Shown: piece by piece, positions 18,381 through 32,316 of the stretch
Layout: each line of letters begins with the position of its first letter
Position numbering within the stretch: the stretch's first letter is position 1
Origin: a virus
Strand: one strand, 5' to 3'
DNA: 38,611 nucleotides
Virus record (IMG/VR): IMGVR_UViG_3300046688_000010
Coordinates: 1 to 38,611 of that record
The notes under the pieces: model-generated
Seen by the model: the letters and a program-made list of their open reading frames with translations, nothing else
The model's database searches: none
Told to the model about the DNA's origin: nothing
Program-made: the position numbers and the translations under genes

Positions 18381-18899
18381 TCATGGAAAGTCTGGTGTCG
18401 TTGCTGGTGACGGTGATCGTGATGGGCCTGGTGGCGTATCTGCTGTACTGGCTGGTGGGGCAAATTCCACTGCCGGCGCCGTTTGCGGTGGTGGCGAAGG
18501 TGCTGCTGGCGCTGTTTGTGGTGATAATGCTGCTGAGCTTGCTTTTCGGCTGGGCGCCGATCCCGCGGCTACATATGCGTTGACCCAGTCGATGATGTCC
18601 CCCGCCCGCCAGAGCAGCGGCTTGCCGGGCCGCGCCGGGTGCGGGAAGCCAGGTTTCTTGCCGACCCGCTCGAGCGTGCGCGGTGCGTAGTGCAGGTAGT
18701 CGGCCACCGCGATCTTGTCCCACAGCAGGTCTTCTGGCCGGCAGGTGGGCTCGAGCGGCAGGATGAACTGGGCGTCGATCGCGTGCTGATAGTCGCTGCC
18801 GGCGGCGAACGCGTCGCACATCGAGCGCCGGGTAAATTGCGCCTCGTTGCGGGTCTCGAACCAGGCCTCGAAGGCCTGCTGTTGGGCCGCGGTGATCAT
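18381..18899 (-). CDS. AlpA/excisionase-type HTH protein with a long low-complexity tail
   Basis: ATGA coupling to the upstream gene. The segment LWDKIAVADYLHYAPRTLERVGKKPGFPHPARPGKPLLWRAGDIIDWV resembles AlpA/HTH_17 domains. The last ~64 codons are A-ending, Pro/Ala/Ser-rich read-through antisense to 18383..18583. Confidence 0.65.
   Translation of the reverse strand: MITAAQQQAFEAWFETRNEAQFTRRSMCDAFAAGSDYQHAIDAQFILPLEPTCRPEDLLWDKIAVADYLHYAPRTLERVGKKPGFPHPARPGKPLLWRAGDIIDWVNAYVAAGSAPSRKASSAALSPQTAPAAPSPPPQTAPAVEFAPPASTADTPPGPSRSPSPATTPDFP
18383..18583 (+). CDS. Two-TM small membrane protein (holin-like or exclusion-like)
   Basis: 66 aa. AGGAGG lies 5 nt upstream of the ATG. Typical CTG/GTG/GCG codon usage. 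It lies entirely antisense to the tail of the AlpA-like gene. Confidence 0.6.
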   Translation: MESLVSLLVTVIVMGLVAYLLYWLVGQIPLPAPFAVVAKVLLALFVVIMLLSLLFGWAPIPRLHMR

Positions 18900-19189
18900 G
18901 TCGGCTTCTTGTGGGTGGCCAGGCCGCGCGCCACCGAAAAGGCGATGTTCACCCGCTCGTCCTCGGCGTCATCCTCGGAATGTGCCCACTCGTTGCGGGC
19001 CGCGACCAACTCATCGATCGCCGCCTGCAAGCGGACGACCTGCGGTTCCAGTTCAGCCCGGCCGTAGGCGATACCGGCGACGAAGAGCAGCGCCAGCTGG
19101 CCCTGGATGTCCCAACTCGGCCCGGTTTTCTCAAGTGCCTCGTCAAACGCGGCCCATTGTGGTTTGGTCATTGCGGCGGGTAGTTTCAT
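18896..19189 (-). CDS. Hypothetical protein (97 aa)
   Basis: ATG 19189 overlaps the upstream stop (ATGA). The N-terminal extension in the track ORF is Arg-rich shadow sequence. Confidence 0.65.
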   Translation of the reverse strand: MKLPAAMTKPQWAAFDEALEKTGPSWDIQGQLALLFVAGIAYGRAELEPQVVRLQAAIDELVAARNEWAHSEDDAEDERVNIAFSVARGLATHKKPT

Positions 19190-19524
19190 GGTTTCACCTG
19201 TATCAGCCCTTCGCGCCAGAGGCGTAGTAGTGTCACGTCCATCGCCCGCCGGAACATCATCTGCTTGTCGGCGCGCTCGCTGGTATAGATGCTGGTCGGG
19301 TCGCGCCCGGTGCCCTGATCGAGCCAGCGGTGGCAGGCGCTGCACAAGTGCGCGCAGAAGCAGTCGTGCGCCTTGCGCATCGCGCCCTTGCCGTGGACCG
19401 ACATGTTGCTGTGGGCCGGTTCGCAGGGGCCGATCGCGCCGCAGTTGCCACAGACCGTATCCAGCCGGTGGGCCAGGTCGAGTAACTTGCGGTTGCGGTA
19501 CTCGGGGTCTTTGTCACGTTCCAT
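19186..19524 (-). CDS. DUF1364 (YbcO-like) putative nuclease
   Basis: 112 aa starting MERDKD. The pattern C-x2-C ... CEPAHS ... C-x2-CH ... LWREGLI matches my memory of E. coli DLP12 YbcO (AHIR..., CSACHDEID, WLKEGVIKA). Confidence 0.7.
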   Translation of the reverse strand: MERDKDPEYRNRKLLDLAHRLDTVCGNCGAIGPCEPAHSNMSVHGKGAMRKAHDCFCAHLCSACHRWLDQGTGRDPTSIYTSERADKQMMFRRAMDVTLLRLWREGLIQVKP

Positions 19525-19858
19525 AACCACGCCTCTCGGCTCGCTTGGAGGCCTCCTGCGTGCGCCAGACCTCGGCGTGGATGGTGGACAGCTGCAGCTC
19601 CCAGCGCAGCGCCTCGGCGCGTTCTGTGGCCTCCCTGAGCCCCTCCAGCAGGGTGAGGTAGTCGGGGTGGCAACGGGCGTCGCGTTCCTGCGCCGCGGCG
19701 CTGGTGGCGCCATGCGCCTCCGCCGCTTTCATGAGCATCGCCAGCTTCGACTTTTTGAACTCCTCCAAGTAACCAACCTGGGCCTTGGCCCTGGCGTACT
19801 GCGGGGCGATGGCGCGGAGCTCGTGCATGCGCCGCTCGATCGCTTCGTCGCTAGCCAT
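19514..19858 (-). CDS. Hypothetical helical protein (114 aa)
   Basis: ATG 19858 gives an 8-nt overlap with the upstream gene. Coiled-coil-like sequence. Confidence 0.65.
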   Translation of the reverse strand: MASDEAIERRMHELRAIAPQYARAKAQVGYLEEFKKSKLAMLMKAAEAHGATSAAAQERDARCHPDYLTLLEGLREATERAEALRWELQLSTIHAEVWRTQEASKRAERRGYGT

Positions 19859-20165
19859 GGCAGGCTGCTTCGTGCGCCCACTCGGCGTCCTGGTCAAACG
19901 GCTGGCCCTGGCCGGCCTGTAACCTGGCGATCGCCTGCTGCCAGGCAACGTCACTCTCGAGCGCCTCGAGCCGCTCGGCGAGTGCTTCGTTTCTGGCCTG
20001 CAGCGCCGGCGCGTCGAGGATCAGCAGCGCGTCGGCCGAGCCGTTACGGCCGATCACCGGCAGGAAGCACACCGTGCGGTTGCGCGCGCCGACGATGCGC
20101 CCGCCCTTGCCGCGGGGGTTGTGCAGCAGGCGCCAGGGGGCTGGGGTATGGGTTTGTTCGTTCAT
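19851..20165 (-). CDS. Hypothetical protein (104 aa)
   Basis: AGGAG precedes ATG 20165. The N-terminal TPAPW ... LILDAPAL pattern recalls Ead/Ea22-type phage proteins (weak). Confidence 0.65.
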   Translation of the reverse strand: MNEQTHTPAPWRLLHNPRGKGGRIVGARNRTVCFLPVIGRNGSADALLILDAPALQARNEALAERLEALESDVAWQQAIARLQAGQGQPFDQDAEWAHEAACHG

Positions 20166-20175
20166 GGTCGCGCTC

Positions 20176-20571
20176 CTAGAAAGGGATATCTTGGTCGAAT
20201 GGATCGGCGGCCTTGACCGGCGCGCTTGTCGTGGCGTGCTCTGCCGGCGGCGCGCCGAGCAGCTTCAGCTCACGCACGTTGATCTCGGTCGTGTAATGCT
20301 TGACGCCGTCCTTTTCCCACTCTCTGGTCTGCATCTTGCCGCTGACGTAGATCTGAGAGCCCTTGTGGACGTACTTGATCGCAACCTCGGCCACCTTGCC
20401 GTAGAGGTTCAGCCGGACCCACTCGGTTTTCTCCTGCTTGGTGCCGGACTTGTCCTTCCATTGCTCGTTGCAGGCGATGTTGAAGTTGGTCACCGCGGTG
20501 CCGTCCGGGAGGTACTTGGCGACCGGGTCCGACCCGGCGTTGCCGATAAAGGTACAGAGGTTGACGCTCAT
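20176..20571 (-). CDS. ssb: Single-stranded DNA-binding protein
   Basis: 131 aa. OB-fold N-terminus (NLCTFIGNAGSDPV ... TEWVRLNLYGKVAE) and the canonical acidic C-terminal tip DQDIPF. Confidence 0.95.
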   Translation of the reverse strand: MSVNLCTFIGNAGSDPVAKYLPDGTAVTNFNIACNEQWKDKSGTKQEKTEWVRLNLYGKVAEVAIKYVHKGSQIYVSGKMQTREWEKDGVKHYTTEINVRELKLLGAPPAEHATTSAPVKAADPFDQDIPF

Positions 20572-21425
20572 ACTGGGTCCCTTTCTGCCAGCGTACGCCG
20601 GCGAATTTCCTCACGCTTGATGGACGAACGGAATTCGGAGTCGAACAGGAACCAGATCGCCAGTTTGTCTTCGACATCGAAGTTGAACTCCTGGAAAACG
20701 TCGACCGCCTTGACGATGCCGTGCATGGCATAGGCCGCGACCACGTCCTGCGCCTTGCGCTCGAGCACCTCTTTGGCCCCAGCGTCGAGGGCGTTGAATG
20801 CGTCCTCGGTGACGTTGCGCGCGCTGCCCTTGGGCGGTTCACTGTCGCCGCGGGGGCGTTCCGGTGGCTTGTCGTCTGGCTTATCGTCATCCAGGTGCAG
20901 CTGGCCCTTGTGCCAGAGCTCCAGCGCACAACCGAAGCGCATTCCGGCGTTTCTCAAGGCATCGCCGATCGCCTCCTTTTCCCGGGCGCCGACGTCCATG
21001 TACGACTTGTTCTCGGCGTTGCCGTAGCCCAGCCGGGTGACGCCGCACACCGTCAGCCGGATCCACAGACCGCCGCGGGCATCGAACTGCGGCAGGCCAT
21101 CCTCGCCCAGCGCCAGCGGGTCCCAGGACCAAGCCTGGTCGGCCTCGAGCAGGCGATCGGTCAGTGCTGCATGGCCGACGTAGTCCAGGTGGATCACGTC
21201 CGGGTGGTGCCAGCCGCCGCATACCTCGCACCGGCGCTTGAGGTTGGGCGCGCATTCATTCTGGGCTTTGGTGCCCTTGGGCAGCTTGGAGATCTGGTGC
21301 GCCGGGAACGGCTGGCGCAGCAGTTCCAGCCCGGTGGGGGGCGGCGGCGCAGTTTTGCTGCCGAGGGCGATCCTTGGTGGGGTTTCGTACTCTTCCTTAC
21401 CGACTTCGGCTTGCTGTTGGGTCAT
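20568..21425 (-). CDS. Rad52-family single-strand annealing protein (DUF1071/Sak-like)
   Basis: ATG 21425 lies behind AAGGA. The motif ISKLPKG...C..CGGWH....HLDYVGHAALTDRLLEADQAWSWDP...LTVCGVTRLGYG...KEAIGDALRNAGMRFGCALELW is as I recall for this family. Confidence 0.85.
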   Translation of the reverse strand: MTQQQAEVGKEEYETPPRIALGSKTAPPPPTGLELLRQPFPAHQISKLPKGTKAQNECAPNLKRRCEVCGGWHHPDVIHLDYVGHAALTDRLLEADQAWSWDPLALGEDGLPQFDARGGLWIRLTVCGVTRLGYGNAENKSYMDVGAREKEAIGDALRNAGMRFGCALELWHKGQLHLDDDKPDDKPPERPRGDSEPPKGSARNVTEDAFNALDAGAKEVLERKAQDVVAAYAMHGIVKAVDVFQEFNFDVEDKLAIWFLFDSEFRSSIKREEIRRRTLAERDPV

Positions 21426-21502
21426 GCTTTTTCCTTGAGTAGCTGGTTGAGTTTGCCGAGCTCGGCGGCGATCAGCCGCCGGCGGGCGAGTTCCGCGGAC
21501 AT
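21422..21502 (-). CDS. Candidate 26-aa micro-ORF (MSAELARRRLIAAELGKLNQLLKEKA)
   Basis: It exactly fills the gap between two genes. Its ATG overlaps the upstream stop (TGATG) and its TGA overlaps the annealase ATG (ATGA). Codons are G/C-ending. Confidence 0.35.
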   Translation of the reverse strand: MSAELARRRLIAAELGKLNQLLKEKA

Positions 21503-21846
21503 CACTCGACTCCCAGGTGGTAGCGGATGTCGATGGTGCCCCAGCCCTCGCCGGCGATGACCGCATCGATCCAGCGCGCGCGCCAGCGATCGATCACCTC
21601 TTTATGGCTGAGCTCGCCGGGGTTCATGATCTGGGCCAGCGCCTCGGGGTGCTCGACGTTGAGCCAGTCGCAGCAGTCGCGGCTGATATCCAGGTCGCCG
21701 ATCTCGAGCCGGAAGCTCAATTCATCCTTGACCCGGCTGGCGCAGTCGCGGCGCAGGCGCACGGGGCTGCCGTGCTGCTGGCGGTGCAGTTCCTGGGCCT
21801 GGGCGAGGTGGATCTGCCGCGCCACTTCATGCTCGCGGTCGTTCAT
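21502..21846 (-). CDS. Hypothetical protein (114 aa)
   Basis: ATGA-coupled within the operon, with coding-type codon bias. Confidence 0.7.
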   Translation of the reverse strand: MNDREHEVARQIHLAQAQELHRQQHGSPVRLRRDCASRVKDELSFRLEIGDLDISRDCCDWLNVEHPEALAQIMNPGELSHKEVIDRWRARWIDAVIAGEGWGTIDIRYHLGVE

Positions 21847-24176: not shown

Positions 24177-24205
24177 ATTGTCAGGCAAGTGTAGGTATGT
24201 GTCAA
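24177..24205 (-). promoter_or_regulatory. Sigma70-type leftward early promoter (copy B of the duplicated module)
   Basis: On the - strand: TTGACA (24205-24200), 17-nt spacer, GACAAT (24182-24177). Confidence 0.6.
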
Positions 24206-24232
24206 TAGGCTTTCTAATAATTTTCCTGGGTG

Positions 24233-24261
24233 TTGCCAAATAGTCACGGTATTGCGACAAT
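24233..24261 (+). promoter_or_regulatory. Candidate rightward early promoter, divergent from the leftward one
   Basis: TTGCCA (24233-38), 17-nt spacer, GACAAT (24256-61). The predicted start site falls at or next to ATG 24269. The palindrome ATTGcgaCAAT (24251-61) overlaps the -10. Confidence 0.5.
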
Positions 24262-24268
24262 GGCCGCC

Positions 24269-24532
24269 ATGAACCTACACGACTATCTGACGACCACCAC
24301 CCAGCAGGAGCTGGCTGATCGCCTGGGGGTGACCCAGGGCATCATTTCGCAGTGGGTGCTCGGGCGGGTCCCGGTGCCACCCGAACGGGCCGCGGCGATC
24401 GAGCGCGCCACCCAGGGCGAGGTGACCCGGGTCGAGCTCAGGCCGGATGTCTTCGGCCCGTTGGGGATCCGCAGGAAACGACGCAATAAGAATTCGCCGA
24501 CCCCGCATGGCGGCGATCCCGGCAGTGCTTAA
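24269..24532 (+). CDS. Cro/YdaS-family HTH regulator
   Basis: QQELADRLGVTQGIISQWVLGRVPVPPERAAAIERATQGEVTRVELRPDVFG closely parallels E. coli YdaS (...VNQWIKGVRQLPAERCPAIERATRGEVLCEELRPD). No SD is present. ATG 24260 is an alternative start. Confidence 0.85.
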   Translation: MNLHDYLTTTTQQELADRLGVTQGIISQWVLGRVPVPPERAAAIERATQGEVTRVELRPDVFGPLGIRRKRRNKNSPTPHGGDPGSA

Positions 24533-24557
24533 TTCATTTCGACTGCACGGGTGTTTG

Positions 24558-24595
24558 GGGGGTGGTGTACGGAGCCGTAGACCACCCCCGTTTTT
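24558..24595 (+). terminator. Strong intrinsic terminator directly after the Cro-like gene
   Basis: GGGGGTGGT (24558-66) pairs with ACCACCCCC (24581-89). The stem is extended by UACG/CGUA inside the loop and followed by GUUUUU. Confidence 0.75.
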
Positions 24596-24606
24596 AGGAG
24601 GGTGTC

Positions 24607-24786
24607 ATGGTCTACGACCTGGATGGAGAGGTGTGGGTGATCCTGGGTGAGGGTGAGGTGATCATCCGGCTGGCGGCAAGCAAGGCGCCGGACGAGACGC
24701 TGACCTATATCGGACCGGCGGAGAGGTACAAGCCAGGCCTGAGAATTCCCGGAAAGGGAATAGCCAGGCCTGAGAATTCCCGATGA
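24607..24786 (+). CDS. Hypothetical 59-aa protein
   Basis: AGGAGG lies 5 nt upstream of the ATG. It was missed by the 60-aa ORF cutoff. The 3' third uses rare A/T-ending codons and carries the 21-bp direct repeats. Confidence 0.55.
   Translation: MVYDLDGEVWVILGEGEVIIRLAASKAPDETLTYIGPAERYKPGLRIPGKGIARPENSR
24731..24782. repeat. Perfect 21-bp direct repeat x2 with a 31-bp period
   Basis: AGCCAGGCCTGAGAATTCCCG occurs at 24731-51 and 24762-82. The two copies are read in different codon phases. Confidence 0.95.
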
Positions 24787-24802
24787 GGGAGGGAAGGAAA
24801 GC

Positions 24803-24991
24803 ATGCTTCATTTATTGGTCTCACTCATTTTTGTATTCTGTCTTGCGCTGTGGCTGCTCGAGCTGCTGGAGATCCTCTTCGCCCACTTCGACGCCTATCT
24901 GGGCGATCGGCAGAAGGCAAGGGCCAACCCGCGGCCGAAGCTGAGCTCGGCGCAGCACCAACGCAGAATGCTGGGCTACCCGGAAAAGTAG
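24803..24991 (+). CDS. Small single-TM protein with a basic C-terminus (62 aa)
   Basis: A purine-rich SD (GAGGGAGGGAAGGAAAGC) precedes the ATG. TM helix LLVSLIFVFCLALWLLELLEILF. Confidence 0.65.
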   Translation: MLHLLVSLIFVFCLALWLLELLEILFAHFDAYLGDRQKARANPRPKLSSAQHQRRMLGYPEK

Positions 24992-25041
24992 TTGGGCAAG
25001 TAGTTTTCCTTTACTTCCCATTTTCCCAGATGTAAGCTATT

Positions 25042-25411
25042 CCACGTCGAGTGGCATCGGCGACACGCAACGAAGGCCCTCTGGTAGAGGGGTGGACCGG
25101 GTAATACCGGCGGCTTTGTTGCGTAAGCTGATGCCATCCGTCCCTCGACCACAGGGCCTTTTCCTATGGCGATGGAGAGACTGGCCCGGGGCTCGGGACT
25201 ACACAGCGACAGGGGCCCCAGGTGAGAAGTGGTACTGGTCGGACAGTTGCGGAAGCACCACACATACGGGCGGTGAAGCTAGCACCCGTGCAACGAAAGG
25301 CTAGCCCGGCACGCGACCGACGGCGAAGCAGCAGCCTGTGGATAAGTGCGAATTGTCCCATTCCGGTGGGATGGTTCCGGCTGCTCCCTCCAGCGAAACG
25401 CACGTGGTTTT
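25042..25411 (+). ncRNA. Candidate novel structured RNA (~370 nt), family unknown
   Basis: ORF-poor island with many nested helices and an H-type pseudoknot (coordinates in the findings). G-U pairs favour the + strand. A promoter-like TTTACT-17-TAAGCT lies at 25010-38, and a U-run follows the closing helix. Confidence 0.45.
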
Positions 25412-25454
25412 GACTTTGATCTATATAAAAGAAGTTGCTTTTGACTTTGACTTT
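25408..25454. repeat. TTTTGACTTTGA 12-mer x2 (31-bp period) plus an overlapping third TTTGACTTT, around an A/T-rich tract
   Basis: Copies at 25408-19 and 25439-50, with a partial copy at 25446-54. TATATAAAAGAAG lies between them. The element provides three TTGACT -35-like hexamers. Confidence 0.6.
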
Positions 25455-25488
25455 AAAACCTTAGTATTCATAGATAAGGGGGTTGCCC

Positions 25489-25728
25489 GTGAAAAACTTT
25501 CAGAGCGCGACCGGGCTGGCGCTGGACGCTGACTTCGCTACCCACCGCCAGAGTTGCGCGCGGTGCGCCGGGTACAGCGCCGGGCAGCCGGCGACGCTGG
25601 CCAACTGCTGTCTCGAGGGGGTGGTGTTGCTCAAACGCGACATGCCGCACAAGAAGCGCATCAGCCGCGAGCGCAGCGAGCACCGCACGACCAAGTCCGG
25701 GCTGGCCGCTGCGATGCGCTACCGGTGA
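25489..25728 (+). CDS. Cys-rich hypothetical protein (79 aa)
   Basis: GTG 25489 lies behind AAGGGGG (TTG 25483 is an alternative start). Contains C-x2-C ... CC and a basic C-terminus. Confidence 0.6.
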   Translation: MKNFQSATGLALDADFATHRQSCARCAGYSAGQPATLANCCLEGVVLLKRDMPHKKRISRERSEHRTTKSGLAAAMRYR

Positions 25729-26255
25729 TGGACGGTACTAACCTCGAGCTGTTCGAGTACGGCATCCATACCGAGCACAGCGATATTCGAGCTCACGTGT
25801 CGGTGGTGAACCGCGCGGTCTATGTGTTCCTGACCAAGAATGGCATTGCCGCCGCGGCGCTGCGCCAGGTACCGCTGGTCGACGCCGGCCAGCCTGGGGT
25901 GAAGGGCAGGACCGCCGAGGGTTGGTTGGTCAAGCCGGAGTGGATCGCCGACCTGCGCCGGCTGCCGTTCGTTTCCTGGCCGCGCTGGGGCGACTTCGAT
26001 CCCGGCATGACCACTACCGAGAAGGGCGCGCTGGCCGTCCAGTGCGTGTTGCAGACGATGAAGCTCGGGCGCTTTCCGATCTGGTTTGACGCCACCGAGG
26101 ACGATCGCCACAACGTGCAGATCCTGGGCACCGATATCCTGGTGTTCTGCAAGAAGAAGGTCCAGGTCAAGTGCGACTGGAAGTGCGGTGGTCCGCTCGG
26201 TACCGGTAACCTGTTCCTGCAGAAGGCCGAGCGCAACCCGCTCAAGCGGCATTGA
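25728..26255 (+). CDS. Putative PD-(D/E)XK-fold nuclease (175 aa)
   Basis: TGATG start overlap. ...TEKGALAV..., ...GTDILVFCKKKVQVKCDW... fits an E / D / (E/Q)xK arrangement. The assignment is tentative. Confidence 0.6.
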   Translation: MDGTNLELFEYGIHTEHSDIRAHVSVVNRAVYVFLTKNGIAAAALRQVPLVDAGQPGVKGRTAEGWLVKPEWIADLRRLPFVSWPRWGDFDPGMTTTEKGALAVQCVLQTMKLGRFPIWFDATEDDRHNVQILGTDILVFCKKKVQVKCDWKCGGPLGTGNLFLQKAERNPLKRH

Positions 26256-26563
26256 TGCGCAGGGCGGCCAAGGTCGACGCCAACCATGCTGCGATCGCCG
26301 CGGCATTGCGCCAGACTGGCTGCACGGTGTTGAGCCTGGCCCCCATCGGCCAGGGTTGTCCTGACCTGCTGGTGGGCCGCGGCGGGGTGTGGGGCATGAA
26401 CCTGCTGCTGGAGATCAAGGATGGTGACAAGTCGCCCAGCCGGCGCGAGCTGACCCCGGACCAGGAGACCTTCCTGCAAAGCTGGAACGGGCCGATCGCG
26501 GTGGTGATGTCGCTGGAAGAGGCCCTAGCAGCGGTGCAGAGGCACCTGGGACGCTTGCGCTGA
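26255..26563 (+). CDS. VRR-NUC-type PD-(D/E)XK nuclease (Holliday-junction-resolvase-like)
   Basis: 102 aa. GCPDLLVG....LLLEIKDG....[26 protein letters not shown] matches the VRR-NUC motif order as I recall it. Confidence 0.75.
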
Positions 26564-26721
26564 TGGACCCGACCGATATCCTGTCCTGGCTTGTGATGAT
26601 CCTGCTGGTGTGCGTATATTTCGTACTGCTGGCGATCTGGGAAAGTTTTCGAGCTCGAGCAAGACGGCGCGAGTACATGCGCCGGTTCTGGACCGAACGC
26701 AGGCGAAGGGGGTTGCGATGA
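26563..26721 (+). CDS. Candidate 52-aa single-TM peptide with an Arg-rich tail
   Basis: The ATG overlaps the upstream stop (TGATG) and the TGA overlaps the next ATG (ATGA). Sequence: [52 protein letters not shown]. Confidence 0.5.
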
Positions 26722-27431
26722 AAGTCTACGTGGGCGGGGTGGAGGTACTGACGGCGACGCAGATCACGATCACCGACGACGGTGCGCCACCGCCATCGGG
26801 CGGCGGTACGCCGGGTCCGGCCGGCCCTCCTGGTCCGCAGGGTGTACCCGGTCCCGCAGGGCCGCAGGGTGCTACTGGCCCAGCCGGCGCCCAGGGACCG
26901 CAAGGGGTGGCTGGACCGCAGGGACCACAAGGGCCTGCAGGGCCGCAGGGACCGGCCGGTGGCACTACCCCACCACCCGACCCCGGCGACGGCGGCACCG
27001 ACCCGCCACCGCCCACTGGCGGGGGTGACTACGCCACCCCGACGGTGCCGATCATCGTGCCCTGGCCTGCCTCGGGCCAGGTTACCCTGCACGTCACCCT
27101 CGGCTACAACGAGACCAAAACCCATCGCCTGGTGTGGAAGGACGCGATGGACCCGGCCAAGACCGGTTTTGTGCGGGTGGTCGAGCAGCCCGGTTCTGCG
27201 GTGATGCCAAGGACGTTCACGCTCAACAACAACGGCGTCGCCAAATTCGGGCCGCACACCGAGAACGCGCCGGGGGCCAGCCTGGTCAACTATCCGACAC
27301 CGGGGTCACCCTCGACGGTGAGCATGAAGTACGACGATACGCTCGACATCATCATTACCAACGGCGACCGGCCACTGGGTGGTGCGAACGGCAACATCCT
27401 GCTCGACATTGGCGTGCCCATGAGGTACTGA
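26718..27431 (+). CDS. Collagen triple-helix-repeat protein (237 aa) outside the structural module
   Basis: Seventeen uninterrupted G-X-Y triplets ([22 protein letters not shown]...GPAG, nt ~26800-26955). These are followed by a Pro-rich linker and a ~150-aa beta-rich C-terminal domain. Confidence 0.85.
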
Positions 27432-30498: not shown

Positions 30499-31720
30499 GC
30501 TAACGGTCGGGCTGTTCTCGCATACGCGCCCGATCGCCAAGGGTTTCTTGCGCCAGATCAAGCGCGAGCTCGAGACCAACGCCTGCCTGCGCGGTCTGTT
30601 CCCGGACATCATCTGGGCCGACCCCGCGCGCCAGGCGCCGAAGTGGAGCGAGGACGATGGGCTAGTGCTCAGGCGCCGCGGCAACCCGAAGGAGAGCACG
30701 CTCGAGGCGCACGGCCTGGTCGACGGCCAGCCGACCGGCAAACACTACTCCATCATGGTCTACGACGACGTCGTGACCCAGAGCTCGGTCACCTCGCCGG
30801 AGATGATGCAGAAAACGACCGAGATGCTCGAGCTGTCGTACAACCTGGGCACCGAGCACGGTCGCCGGCGGTTCGTGGGCACCAGGTACCACGCCGCGGA
30901 CAGTTACCAGACCATCCTGCAGCGCGGCACCGCCACCCAGCGCGTGCGGCTGGCCACCGACGACGGCACCCTGGACGGCGTGCCGGCGATCTGGACCGTG
31001 GAGCAGCTCAAGGAGAAGCGCAAAGACCTGGGCCCGTACACCTTCGCTTGCCAAATTATGCAGGACCCGCTCCACGACGCGACGCAGTCATTCCGCCGCG
31101 AGTGGCTCAAGCACTTCGAGAACCGCTCGGGCGAGGGGATGAACAAGTACCTACTCTGCGACGCGGCGAACAGCAAGCGCCGGAGCTCTGACTACACCAG
31201 CATCTGGGTCATCGGGCTGGCCGCCGATCGCAACTACTACGCGCTGGACATCATTAGGGACAGGTTGAACCTGACCGAGCGCGCCGCGGCGATCATGCGC
31301 CTGCACCGCAAGTGGCGCCCAATGGAGGTCCGCTACGAGTCGTACGGGCTGATGGCCGACATCGCCCATATCAAGGCCTGCCAGGAGGCGGAGAATTACC
31401 GGTTCGATATCACCCCGGTGGCCGGCCGGGCGCCGAAGAACGATCGCGTGCGCCGGCTGCTGCCGCTGTTCGAGCAGGGCCGCTTCTACCTGCCGATCAC
31501 CCATAACTACGGCGACTACGAGCACGTCGTGCGCGACCTGGTGCAGGACTTCATCGAGCAGGAGTACGCGAGCTTTCCTGTCGGCCTGCACGACGACATG
31601 ATGGACGCGCTGTCGCGCATCGCCGAGCCCGAACTCGAGTTGGTATGGCCGCGCGAGTCGAGCTCGACCAAGCCTGACCGCTACAAGCGGGTGGCCGAGA
31701 CCAGCGCGTGGGCGGCATGA
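30206..31720 (+). CDS. terL: Terminase large subunit
   Basis: 504 aa. Walker-A-like RGHYKSS and Walker-B-like IMVYDDV, plus a C-terminal nuclease-like part. GTG start behind AAGGGG; an in-frame TAG at 30188 excludes a longer N-terminus. Confidence 0.92.
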   Translation: MSPLATTLEQYSTLQRSLLALSSAEQAQAIRYLCLHDLYYLLRYALNRPDAEHQWILDRCREVQADPNDRLDLWSRGHYKSSIITLALTIQDILNDPELTVGLFSHTRPIAKGFLRQIKRELETNACLRGLFPDIIWADPARQAPKWSEDDGLVLRRRGNPKESTLEAHGLVDGQPTGKHYSIMVYDDVVTQSSVTSPEMMQKTTEMLELSYNLGTEHGRRRFVGTRYHAADSYQTILQRGTATQRVRLATDDGTLDGVPAIWTVEQLKEKRKDLGPYTFACQIMQDPLHDATQSFRREWLKHFENRSGEGMNKYLLCDAANSKRRSSDYTSIWVIGLAADRNYYALDIIRDRLNLTERAAAIMRLHRKWRPMEVRYESYGLMADIAHIKACQEAENYRFDITPVAGRAPKNDRVRRLLPLFEQGRFYLPITHNYGDYEHVVRDLVQDFIEQEYASFPVGLHDDMMDALSRIAEPELELVWPRESSSTKPDRYKRVAETSAWAA

Positions 31721-32316
31721 GGACCGTGCGCCGGACGCTGACGATCGTGGTCCGCCAGGACGTGGAGGAGGGTGTGCTGTTCGACGCTGCCTACCTGCCT
31801 GCGCTGGTGGAGTATGAGGCCGCGGTGAGGGCCGGGAAGTTGGGCCATAGCACCCCTGAGTTTTTCGAGGCCAGCAACGGGGTGCGCTTTGAGATGGCGC
31901 ACCGCACGGGGCTGGGTGAGCTTGACTCGGTGCGTGAGCTTGGGTTGCAGACGCGCACGGTGAACTGCCTGGTGTCCGAGGGGATCACGACGGTTGCCGC
32001 CCTGGTGACGTGGACTGAGCGCAGGTTGCTGCTGACCCCCAACCTGGGGCGCAAGGCGCTGAACGAGATCAAAGACGCGCTGCAAGCCGAGGGCCTGGTG
32101 CTGGCGAAGGAACCGGTGGCCCCGGAGGTGCCGCTGTGCGCGGTGTGCCGGATGCGGCACTGGCCGGGGGCAGGGCACCGCTATACCGACGAGGAGTCGC
32201 GGCGGCTGACGCTGCTGGCGACCGATCCTGGAATGGTGGCCGAGCTGCTCGCGCGGGTGATCGAACTGGAGAAGCGGGTGCAGCAGATGGCCGCGGCGAC
32301 GGTGGGGATGGTATGA
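31717..32316 (+). CDS. Protein carrying an RNA polymerase alpha-subunit C-terminal-domain-like (alpha-CTD, HhH) segment
   Basis: ATGA-coupled to terL. LGLQTRTVNCLVSEGITTVAALVTWTERRLLLTPNLGRKALNEIKDALQAEGL aligns by eye with E. coli RpoA CTD [53 protein letters not shown]. The C-terminus carries CAVCRMRHWPGAGHRY. Confidence 0.8.
   Translation: MRTVRRTLTIVVRQDVEEGVLFDAAYLPALVEYEAAVRAGKLGHSTPEFFEASNGVRFEMAHRTGLGELDSVRELGLQTRTVNCLVSEGITTVAALVTWTERRLLLTPNLGRKALNEIKDALQAEGLVLAKEPVAPEVPLCAVCRMRHWPGAGHRYTDEESRRLTLLATDPGMVAELLARVIELEKRVQQMAAATVGMV

Follow-up and report, generated by a model that had tools for sequence, protein, structure and literature searches.

A divergent Betaproteobacteria-1 RNA (RF02932) in an uncultured phage: a long, knotted RNA with an internal phage-specific repeat, associated with phage replication modules

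What does a phage genome keep in a stretch that carries no gene? The question is raised by positions 24992-25488 of the IMG/VR virus record IMGVR_UViG_3300046688_000010, the whole 38,611 nucleotides (nt) of which were analysed and are hereafter called the window. The record represents an uncultured phage genome of ~38.7 kb, seen on at least 15 contigs. A first-pass annotation of the sequence had described these positions as a gene-free island, the + strand of which would fold into a pseudoknotted RNA, a candidate for a novel family. The island is indeed free of genes, being crossed only by mechanical open reading frames (ORFs) of 63-95 amino acids, and it is regarded as non-coding because its relatives show indels of 1, 2, 11 and 13 nt and substitutions which compensate each other within helices. 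The pseudoknotted, structured RNA of the + strand is likewise genuine, as seen from covariation and from an Rfam match. When the whole window was scanned with Rfam 15, RF02932 (Betaproteobacteria-1 RNA) was found at 25185-25309 (+) with 61.5 bits and E = 4e-9, the curated gathering score being 49.4 bits. The match spans positions 1-120 of the 120 in the model and was the only one above a curated threshold. The family is therefore not novel, a clear match to a known Rfam family being the finding which the first-pass annotation had itself set against novelty. The segment 25180-25403 (+) of the window is, with near certainty, a divergent member of the Betaproteobacteria-1 family (RF02932), a phage-borne non-coding RNA.

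How far this identity extends was assessed with related loci, cited here by L numbers. The Rfam model confirmed RF02932 in all 18 of the related viral loci tested; the window copy is low-scoring with this model (61.5 bits), relatives reaching up to 103 bits. A covariance model of 203 positions, built from 41 relatives, identified a single full-length copy per locus in 66 loci, including some sequences outside the training set. In the window it placed the RNA at 25180-25403 (+), with 86.7 bits and E = 1.6e-22 over positions 1-203 of 203, and gave no second copy. Exact-pattern scanning of IMG/VR with GGYGGYGAAGCYAGCNCC returned at least 120 loci, and nhmmer found the element in 80 of the at least 120 loci listed, most matches extending well 3' of the 120-nt Rfam model. 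The same pattern gave at least 120 loci in the genome collection, all of which were chance matches by nhmmer. Resemblance over the whole island was limited, among the matches listed, to L023 (86% over 475 nt) and to L008, L013 and L057 (77% over 515 nt).

No DNA similarity to the window island, or to the 10 kb around it, was found in GenBank phages. When other family members served as queries, the only GenBank phages retrieved were Acidovorax phage AP1 and an uncultured Caudoviricetes record. In AP1 the RNA occupies a gap without annotation (OM049504, 11822-12114), immediately behind two genes that are annotated 'helicase' and 'primase'. The element is also present on a 1.5-Mb replicon of Burkholderia sp. 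THE68. In Rfam, RF02932 is presumably described as a probable small RNA (sRNA) near phage genes, with unknown function. The motif originates from Weinberg et al. (2017, NAR 45:10811, PMC5737381), in the main text of which the Betaproteobacteria-1 motif is not mentioned; the literature searched contained no paper on the function of RF02932 and no other mention of the motif.

How is the RNA folded, and how long is it? Covariation was evaluated with 66 sequences aligned by the covariance model, the pseudoknot pairs lying outside that model. This alignment was used instead of RNAalifold on MAFFT alignments, which was misled by length variation. Standard pairs filled 85.8% of the cells of the family pairs (65.2% in shuffles), the covariation score was 0.539 (0.171 in shuffles, 0 of 500 reaching 0.539) and slid controls, with the 3' partners moved by 1-3 columns, gave 0.096 at most, figures which lean towards the nested helices because the alignment was fitted to these. 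The family RNA is ~205-225 nt long, compared with the 120 nt of the Rfam model, and in the window comprises the core that matches RF02932 in the Rfam scan (25185-25309) and a 3' domain, together 25180-25403 on the + strand in the covariance-model alignment.

The core consists of two hairpins locked by three pseudoknot contacts (PK1, PK3 and S1/S2), all of which covary in the family. Hairpin H1 (25185-94 with 25213-22, one mismatch in the window) has eight family pairs, each varying on both sides, with 96.5% of the cells paired, and its changes are also compensated among the window, L023 and L008. Its loop, GCGACAG (25206-12), is the 5' partner in PK1, the loop-loop helix of 25207-12 with 25235-41. 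The loop of hairpin H2 (25229-33 with 25257-61) provides both CUGGUCG (25235-41) for PK1 and GUUGC (25246-50) for PK3, in which the latter pairs with GCAAC (25290-94) in the loop of an H-type pseudoknot. PK3, first noticed by eye, was put to the test with an alignment that had not been fitted to it: 77% of the cells were paired and the score was 0.646, compared with 0.174 in shuffles (0 of 500 as high). Two further family features, the conserved H1 loop ending in AC..CAG and the CUG...GAA loop of H2, are found in the window, as is the family hairpin GGYGGYGAAG-CYAGC ... GGCURGC with its pseudoknotting loop (25266-25305).

The H-type pseudoknot had been drawn by the first-pass annotation with both stems as they are seen here, S1 from ACGGG (25266-70) with CCCGU (25285-89) and S2 from GCUAGC (25278-83) with 25300-05. 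One S1 pair is AU in 25, UA in 14, GC in 10 and CG in 5 of the 66 sequences, and the stem is extended by a wobble pair (A2 columns 107/120; C25271/A25284 in the window), which 31 sequences form as U.G and 34 as C.A, with a single exception. Because of this isosteric wobble switch and the frequent G.U pairs of the + strand, the conserved feature is taken to be a folded + strand RNA rather than a DNA element. The switch between U.G and C.A, stacked on the pseudoknot stem, suggests a conserved pair of wobble geometry, possibly a protonated C.A+. Nested minimum free energy (MFE) folding is blind to the structure of the family RNA (z = +0.65 for 25180-25403).

What lies beyond the Rfam model? After GGCUGGCGGGU, the family order is hairpin Pa, a GUGAAGG linker, hairpin Pb, C(C/U)CACC and R2. 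The loop of Pa contains GGCUCC followed by 8-12 variable nt, here called R1; R2 is a run of 8-12 variable nt in the 3' tail, after the C(C/U)CACC. All five family pairs of Pa vary on both sides, with 84-97% of the cells paired, whereas Pa of the window (25310-25340) is weak, with CACG/UGUG in the model alignment. The R1 of the window (25319-29, GACGGCGAAGC) follows GACC (25315-18), the window variant of GGCUCC. Pb (25330-36 with 25379-85, region 25330-25385) is the outer helix of what had been drawn as Domain 4. The Pb helices covary and are compensated in the family, e.g. GGCAGACCU/AGGUCUGCC versus GGCGAAUCU/AGGUUCGUC, and the Pb loop is commonly GGGAUGGCU. Pb of the window encloses a further hairpin (25356-60/25367-71), carries the conserved GGGAUGG motif of the loop at 25368-74 and has a 5' arm displaced relative to L023. 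It is followed at 25388-25403 by CUCC, the counterpart of the family CACC, and R2 (25392-25403, AGCGAAACGCAC).

One deletion variant of this domain was seen. L043 is the RNA of L072 with a clean deletion between two GGCUGG repeats, which removes Pa, R1 and half of Pb and is either a natural variant or an assembly artefact.

Two known kinds of RNA were considered and rejected. A tRNA (transfer RNA), a tmRNA (transfer-messenger RNA) or a tRNA-like element was rejected by ARAGORN, which found no tRNA or tmRNA in the window, and by a permissive Rfam scan (E ≤ 5) of 24500-25600, which gave only chance-level matches to microRNAs and sRNAs and no tRNA or tmRNA; the CACCA after Pb alone is reminiscent of one. 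An RNA sequestering CsrA/RsmA was rejected as well, since the 3' domain has 2.06 GGA per 100 nt compared with 1.60 in the loci, and only 44 of the 66 sequences have a GGA inside Pb. A GGAATACAGG(G)A motif, found 10-40 nt past R2 in L010, L053 (twice), L025 and L121 (AP1), resembles the CsrA consensus RUACARGGAUGU from SELEX (systematic evolution of ligands by exponential enrichment); overall GGA density is unenriched.

The variable segments proved to be related to each other. R1 and R2 form a direct repeat inside each RNA, which differs from RNA to RNA: both are AACGGGCAUGG in L003 and both AAAGUGCAGG in L046, while L075 has GGCGGCGUGUG as R1 and AGCAACGUGUG as R2. Over positions 2-9, identity between R1 and R2 was 5.56 of 8 within an RNA and 2.98 of 8 between RNAs (permutation p ≤ 1e-4), so that the repeat co-varies within each RNA. 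Mismatches are asymmetric, with G in R1 and A in R2 occurring 18 times family-wide and the reverse three times. This excess is the bias expected if R1 pairs, wobble allowed, with the exact complement of R2. In the window, R1 (GGCGAAGC, 25322-29) and R2 (AGCGAAAC, 25392-99) are identical at 6 of 8 positions, and both mismatches are G(R1)/A(R2). Both segments are rich in purines (fraction 0.74 in R1 and 0.73 in R2, compared with 0.60 in the core).

Where could a complement of R be found? No partner was detected inside the RNA, the energies of own and cross duplexes differing by <1 kcal/mol throughout, nor in the 300-nt flanks, for which own and cross values were -8.66 and -8.69 kcal/mol downstream and -9.43 and -9.20 kcal/mol upstream. 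In whole loci, R pairs only with the DNA strand that lies opposite R2. The DNA template strand under R2 is thus the sole complement that is always present, since neither the RNA nor its flanks hold another. Extra R-like copies in L031 and L068 share no common context and were taken as chance. Back-pairing of R2 on the 3' strand of Pb, as a terminator, was rejected as a general explanation, since it is possible in only a few lineages (L049, L031 and L038).

In which surroundings is the RNA found? It is associated with phage replication modules. When ORFs of 65 distinct loci were clustered and then typed, the RNA was found to abut primase, helicase or initiator genes in at least 40. In 25 of the 65 loci it starts within a few nt of the stop codon of a gene for a Toprim protein, which was typed as DNA primase (phrog_2249, phrog_510). 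In 21 loci a DEAD/ResIII helicase precedes the Toprim primase and is itself preceded, in most of them, by a ParB/methylase-like gene (assigned by eye), the AP1 member of which is annotated 'plasmid replication/partition related protein'. A replication-initiation-like protein (phrog_9474, phrog_270) starts ~300 nt downstream of the RNA in nine loci, and a primase-helicase lies downstream in six. Most loci provide the RNA with neither a promoter nor a terminator of its own: in 62 of 63 loci R2 is not followed by an intrinsic terminator, and few sigma-70-like promoters flank the RNA.

The DNA downstream of the RNA is also distinctive. Over 110 nt in the 63 loci, the AT fraction is 0.56 compared with 0.45 in the background, and exact direct repeats of at least 8 nt occur in 29% compared with 9%. 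In the window, the 80 nt 3' of the RNA are 69% AT, and an AT-rich tract at 25396-25482 (+) holds two 24-nt direct repeats (25396-25419 and 25427-25450) which contain TTTTGACTTTGA. These are spaced 31 nt apart and end in GyTTTTGACTTTGA. The otherwise divergent L089 carries a GCTTTTGACT motif, part of GCTTTTGACTTTG, twice downstream of its RNA. The 24-nt repeat and the GCTTTTGACT motif could be tandem -35 elements, operators or iterons.

What, then, might the RNA do? A tentative answer, possible rather than probable, is that it works in cis, at the phage origin or adjoining it, R1 pairing with the template under R2 to give a hybrid. The RNA would be produced by read-through of the early or replication operon, and its knotted core would present R1. 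R1 would base-pair, with G.T wobbles tolerated, to the DNA template strand beneath R2, which borders the AT-rich, repeat-bearing tract, and the pairing would nucleate a persistent RNA:DNA hybrid (R-loop) which would activate or prime phage replication. In this 38.6-kb phage, where genes for an initiator, helicase, primase or polymerase could not be recognised, the remaining work would fall to host enzymes. The phage-specific R sequence would then be an RNA-encoded specificity element, in the role that iterons have for protein initiators. This mechanism is favoured because of the G/A asymmetry, the lack of an RNA partner in cis, the purine-rich R1 and R2 and the replication-gene context, because of the missing terminator in 62 of 63 loci and the AT-rich, repeat-enriched tract downstream, and because the window phage has a single-strand annealing protein and a single-stranded DNA-binding protein (SSB) and no initiator was found in it. 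That the extended RNA constitutes a new kind of replication-origin RNA for temperate phages, R1 seizing the template at R2, is rather doubtful. The RNA-primed origin which the first-pass annotation had named as one option is left open, with circumstantial support from the neighbouring replication genes and the R1/R2 repeat. Taken as a whole, identity, architecture and replication-linked mechanism make up the best explanation at hand, one about equally balanced between right and wrong.

Several observations weigh against an origin function. The intricate and conserved core exceeds the need of a simple R-loop primer and looks more like a docking site for a protein or a machine. Wobble pairs between rG and dT weaken an RNA:DNA hybrid. 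Pure pairing does not account for the mismatch U(R1)/A(R2), which occurs nine times, and leaves the conserved CUCC/CACC prefixes without a role. The repeat of the window itself is weak, with only 6 of 8 positions identical. AT-rich, repeat-bearing DNA is also typical of promoters and operators, and its enrichment downstream of the RNA is modest; the cumulative GC skew of the window makes no turn at the locus.

A trans-acting scaffold or decoy, only tentatively to be considered, would use the core to bind a conserved host or phage factor and R1 and R2 to bind one external partner, which could be an RNA rich in pyrimidines, a single-stranded DNA end or a sequence-specific protein that acts as a dimer. 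The RNA would be released from the operon transcript by cleavage, perhaps with the conserved CACCA at its end. Such a role would suit the complexity and strong conservation of the core, and the placement of R1 in a loop and of R2 in a single-stranded tail is typical of seeds. It would also fit the CC followed by A before R2 in most members, the failure to find a partner in cis and the persistence of the RNA in a phage without replication genes. However, most loci lack the promoter and terminator of an independent RNA, and no candidate target was found in the loci examined, the extra R-like copies in L031 looking like chance. The G/A asymmetry, moreover, points to the exact complement of R2 as the partner, which an external target would match only by coincidence.

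An unlikely alternative is a leader or intercistronic regulator acting in cis on the downstream operon, either by modifying RNA polymerase for processive antitermination, like the put RNAs of HK022, or as a ligand or protein switch read out through R1 and R2. In its favour, the RNA lies between genes of the same strand without a promoter or terminator of its own, and a terminator-like hairpin precedes it in several lineages. Against it, no conserved terminator/antiterminator alternative pairing with R1 or R2 was found, and the downstream genes are unconserved. The window copy follows a Cro-like gene, where lambdoid phages have nutR/putR, and the next ORF lies 0-40 nt from R2 in some loci; in many others, however, R2 is separated from the gene that follows by 60-140 nt with promoter-like TTGAC sites. 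Known put RNAs, of ~70 nt with two stem-loops, have no such knots.

The upstream part of the island, which the first-pass annotation had joined to the family RNA, behaves differently from it. Domain 1 (25046-25149, +) is a long branched hairpin which folds as had been drawn: together with the adjoining hairpin it has an MFE of -66.5 kcal/mol (z = -3.97, with 0 of 200 shuffles as good). L008 retains its architecture with compensatory changes, GGCAU/AUGCC being replaced by GGAAU/AUUCC and the inner helix being wholly replaced. A pattern specific to Domain 1 was, however, found in only four IMG/VR contigs, all of them previously found, compared with at least 80 loci for the family RNA, and no Rfam family matches it. 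Domain 1 is thus considered a separate, lineage-specific module, since it is confined to four contigs and other lineages differ upstream: there H1 follows an unrelated terminator-like hairpin, a promoter (TTGACT-18-AAGAAT in L113) or, immediately, a stop codon.

A small hairpin, seen in the MFE fold at 25141-25176 (+), lies between Domain 1 and the family RNA, its apical stem pairing CCACAGG (25149-55) with CCUAUGG (25163-69). In the L008 lineage this position is occupied by a terminator-like 12-bp stem with U7, which competes with the long hairpin. Differing structured elements precede the family RNA in L008 (10008-10162, the Domain 1 homologue), L066, L102 and L015, in each case a long stem with a U-run at its end, the 5' arm being buried in another hairpin, as in terminator/antiterminator or pseudoknot arrangements; the U-run has been lost in the window lineage. 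Upstream of Domain 1, a block of ~55 nt (24985-25040, +) is nearly invariant in the window, L023 and L008, although their upstream ORFs differ. It contains TTTACT (25010-15), a 17-nt spacer and TAAGCT (25033-38), and we infer only that it may have a promoter role; the promoter proposed by the first-pass annotation at these positions (25010-38) was not called by a sigma-70 consensus scan.

These observations also bear on the closed, four-domain novel RNA of ~370 nt (25042-25407) that had been proposed, with its promoter at 25010-38 and its 3' end at helix P1 followed by UUUU. Helix P1 (25042-47/25402-07) can be drawn in the window; of the closest relatives, L023 has it in weakened form (AAGUGG) and L008 lacks it. 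The helices said to enclose the H-type pseudoknot (25238-42/25317-21 and 25247-51/25312-16) fail, because they are unsupported across the family, with 45.6% of the cells paired and 43.8% in shuffles, and because their bases belong to PK1 and PK3. Folding of the whole island was ordinary compared with shuffles (z = -1.34 for the + strand and -2.01 for the - strand), and no terminator-like site was found in 24200-25700. Although the window sequence allows every helix listed for it, Domain 1 has exceptional stability and the putative promoter block is kept in three related lineages, the closed RNA is hardly credible, its core being a known family, its P1 and enclosing helices unconserved and in competition, as regards the latter, with PK1 and PK3, and its Domain 1 a separate module.

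A terminator-gated Cro-like gene upstream and a Cys-rich protein and two nucleases downstream had been listed as neighbours of the island. The analysis identified a Cro/YdaS-type helix-turn-helix gene upstream (24230-24532; PF15943, E = 1e-19) and, downstream, a Cys-rich 81-aa ORF (starting at 25483 or 25490) and one putative endonuclease (26252-26563). A 62-aa hydrophobic ORF, ending at 24991, flanks the island upstream and the Cys-rich ORF flanks it downstream. Between the Cro/YdaS-like gene and the hydrophobic ORF, positions 24719-24780 hold two tandem 31-nt copies (87% identical) of CGGAGAGGTACAAGCCAGGCCTGAGAATTCC, each able to fold with its neighbour into a small hairpin of the GAAUUCCC/GGGAAU type. 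A left operon on the minus strand (18381-21566) encodes the single-strand annealing protein (20568-21566), the SSB (20176-20571) and an HNH nuclease (19186-19713). That the phage has no recognisable replication initiator, as stated earlier from the sequence, was borne out among the window proteins tested, none of which was an initiator, helicase, primase or DNA polymerase. Its structural genes include a capsid of the N4-gp56 type and a portal of the P22 type. In an ORF adjoining the large terminase (31708-32316), the C-terminal domain of an RNA polymerase alpha subunit was recognised (PF03118, E = 5e-16), which is unusual in a phage and could mean manipulation of host transcription. A tail-fibre-like protein with collagen repeats (G-X-Y) is encoded at 26610-27431 in the early-right block, ~1.2 kb downstream of the RNA.

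What is gained is a narrowed question, not a solved one, on RF02932, which belongs to the numerous 'orphan' structured RNAs catalogued in 2017. The RNA has nearly double the length of its annotation model and is located in phage replication modules; three pseudoknot contacts within ~125 nt place it among the more intricately knotted small bacterial RNAs. It contains a within-molecule, phage-specific repeat, the substitutions of which suggest pairing with the complement of the RNA's own 3' flank. Were the origin reading true, it would explain how replication starts in small temperate phages without initiator, helicase and primase genes. Acidovorax phage AP1, on Paracidovorax oryzae, is a cultured system which carries the RNA.

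How does the RNA compare with systems already described? With RF02932 as modelled, the window shares H1, H2 and the GAAG-CYAGC hairpin as well as a phage or prophage setting, relatives being present in Acidovorax phage AP1 and Burkholderia sp. THE68. It differs from the family in having GACC for GGCUCC, CUCC for CACC, an inserted hairpin in Pb and the extra Domain 1 upstream. Compared with the Rfam model (the model, not Rfam's drawing), the family RNA is ~85 nt longer, through Pa, Pb and R1/R2, and has the additional contacts PK1 and PK3; the 3' domain, PK1, PK3, the wobble covariation, the internal specificity repeat and the link to replication modules are new.

Among phage RNAs, P4 CI and the c4 RNAs of P1/P7 are immunity RNAs of the early region in which two direct repeats carry phage-specific sequence, both repeats being targeted by a complementary loop of a small RNA from the same transcript. 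An antisense system of the P4 CI or P1 c4 type was rejected here, no complementary segment being found in the RNA or its 300-nt flanks and no match to the Rfam C4 family. The put RNAs of HK022 are likewise phage RNAs downstream of early promoters and cro, without a gene of their own; they show no sequence similarity to the window RNA and are far simpler, with two stem-loops in ~70 nt.

A functional analogue may be RNA II of the plasmid ColE1, the upstream G-run of which, according to work of Masukata and Tomizawa in 1990, reportedly seizes the template near the origin. There is neither sequence nor structural homology between the two, the analogy being functional only; the core of the Betaproteobacteria-1 RNA is far more knotted and conserved, and neither an antisense partner of the RNA I type nor a promoter for one was found on the minus strand, the sigma-70 scan of 24200-25700 showing no promoter-like site there. 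Like RNA II, however, the RNA would be a read-through transcript next to an AT-rich region, with an upstream segment of the same sense and sequence as a downstream one. Judged by its sequence, the R1/R2 direct repeat would supply what RNA II-type priming depends on, an upstream segment able to pair with the template of the downstream one. Host enzymes would suffice, which would suit a phage without replication genes of its own.

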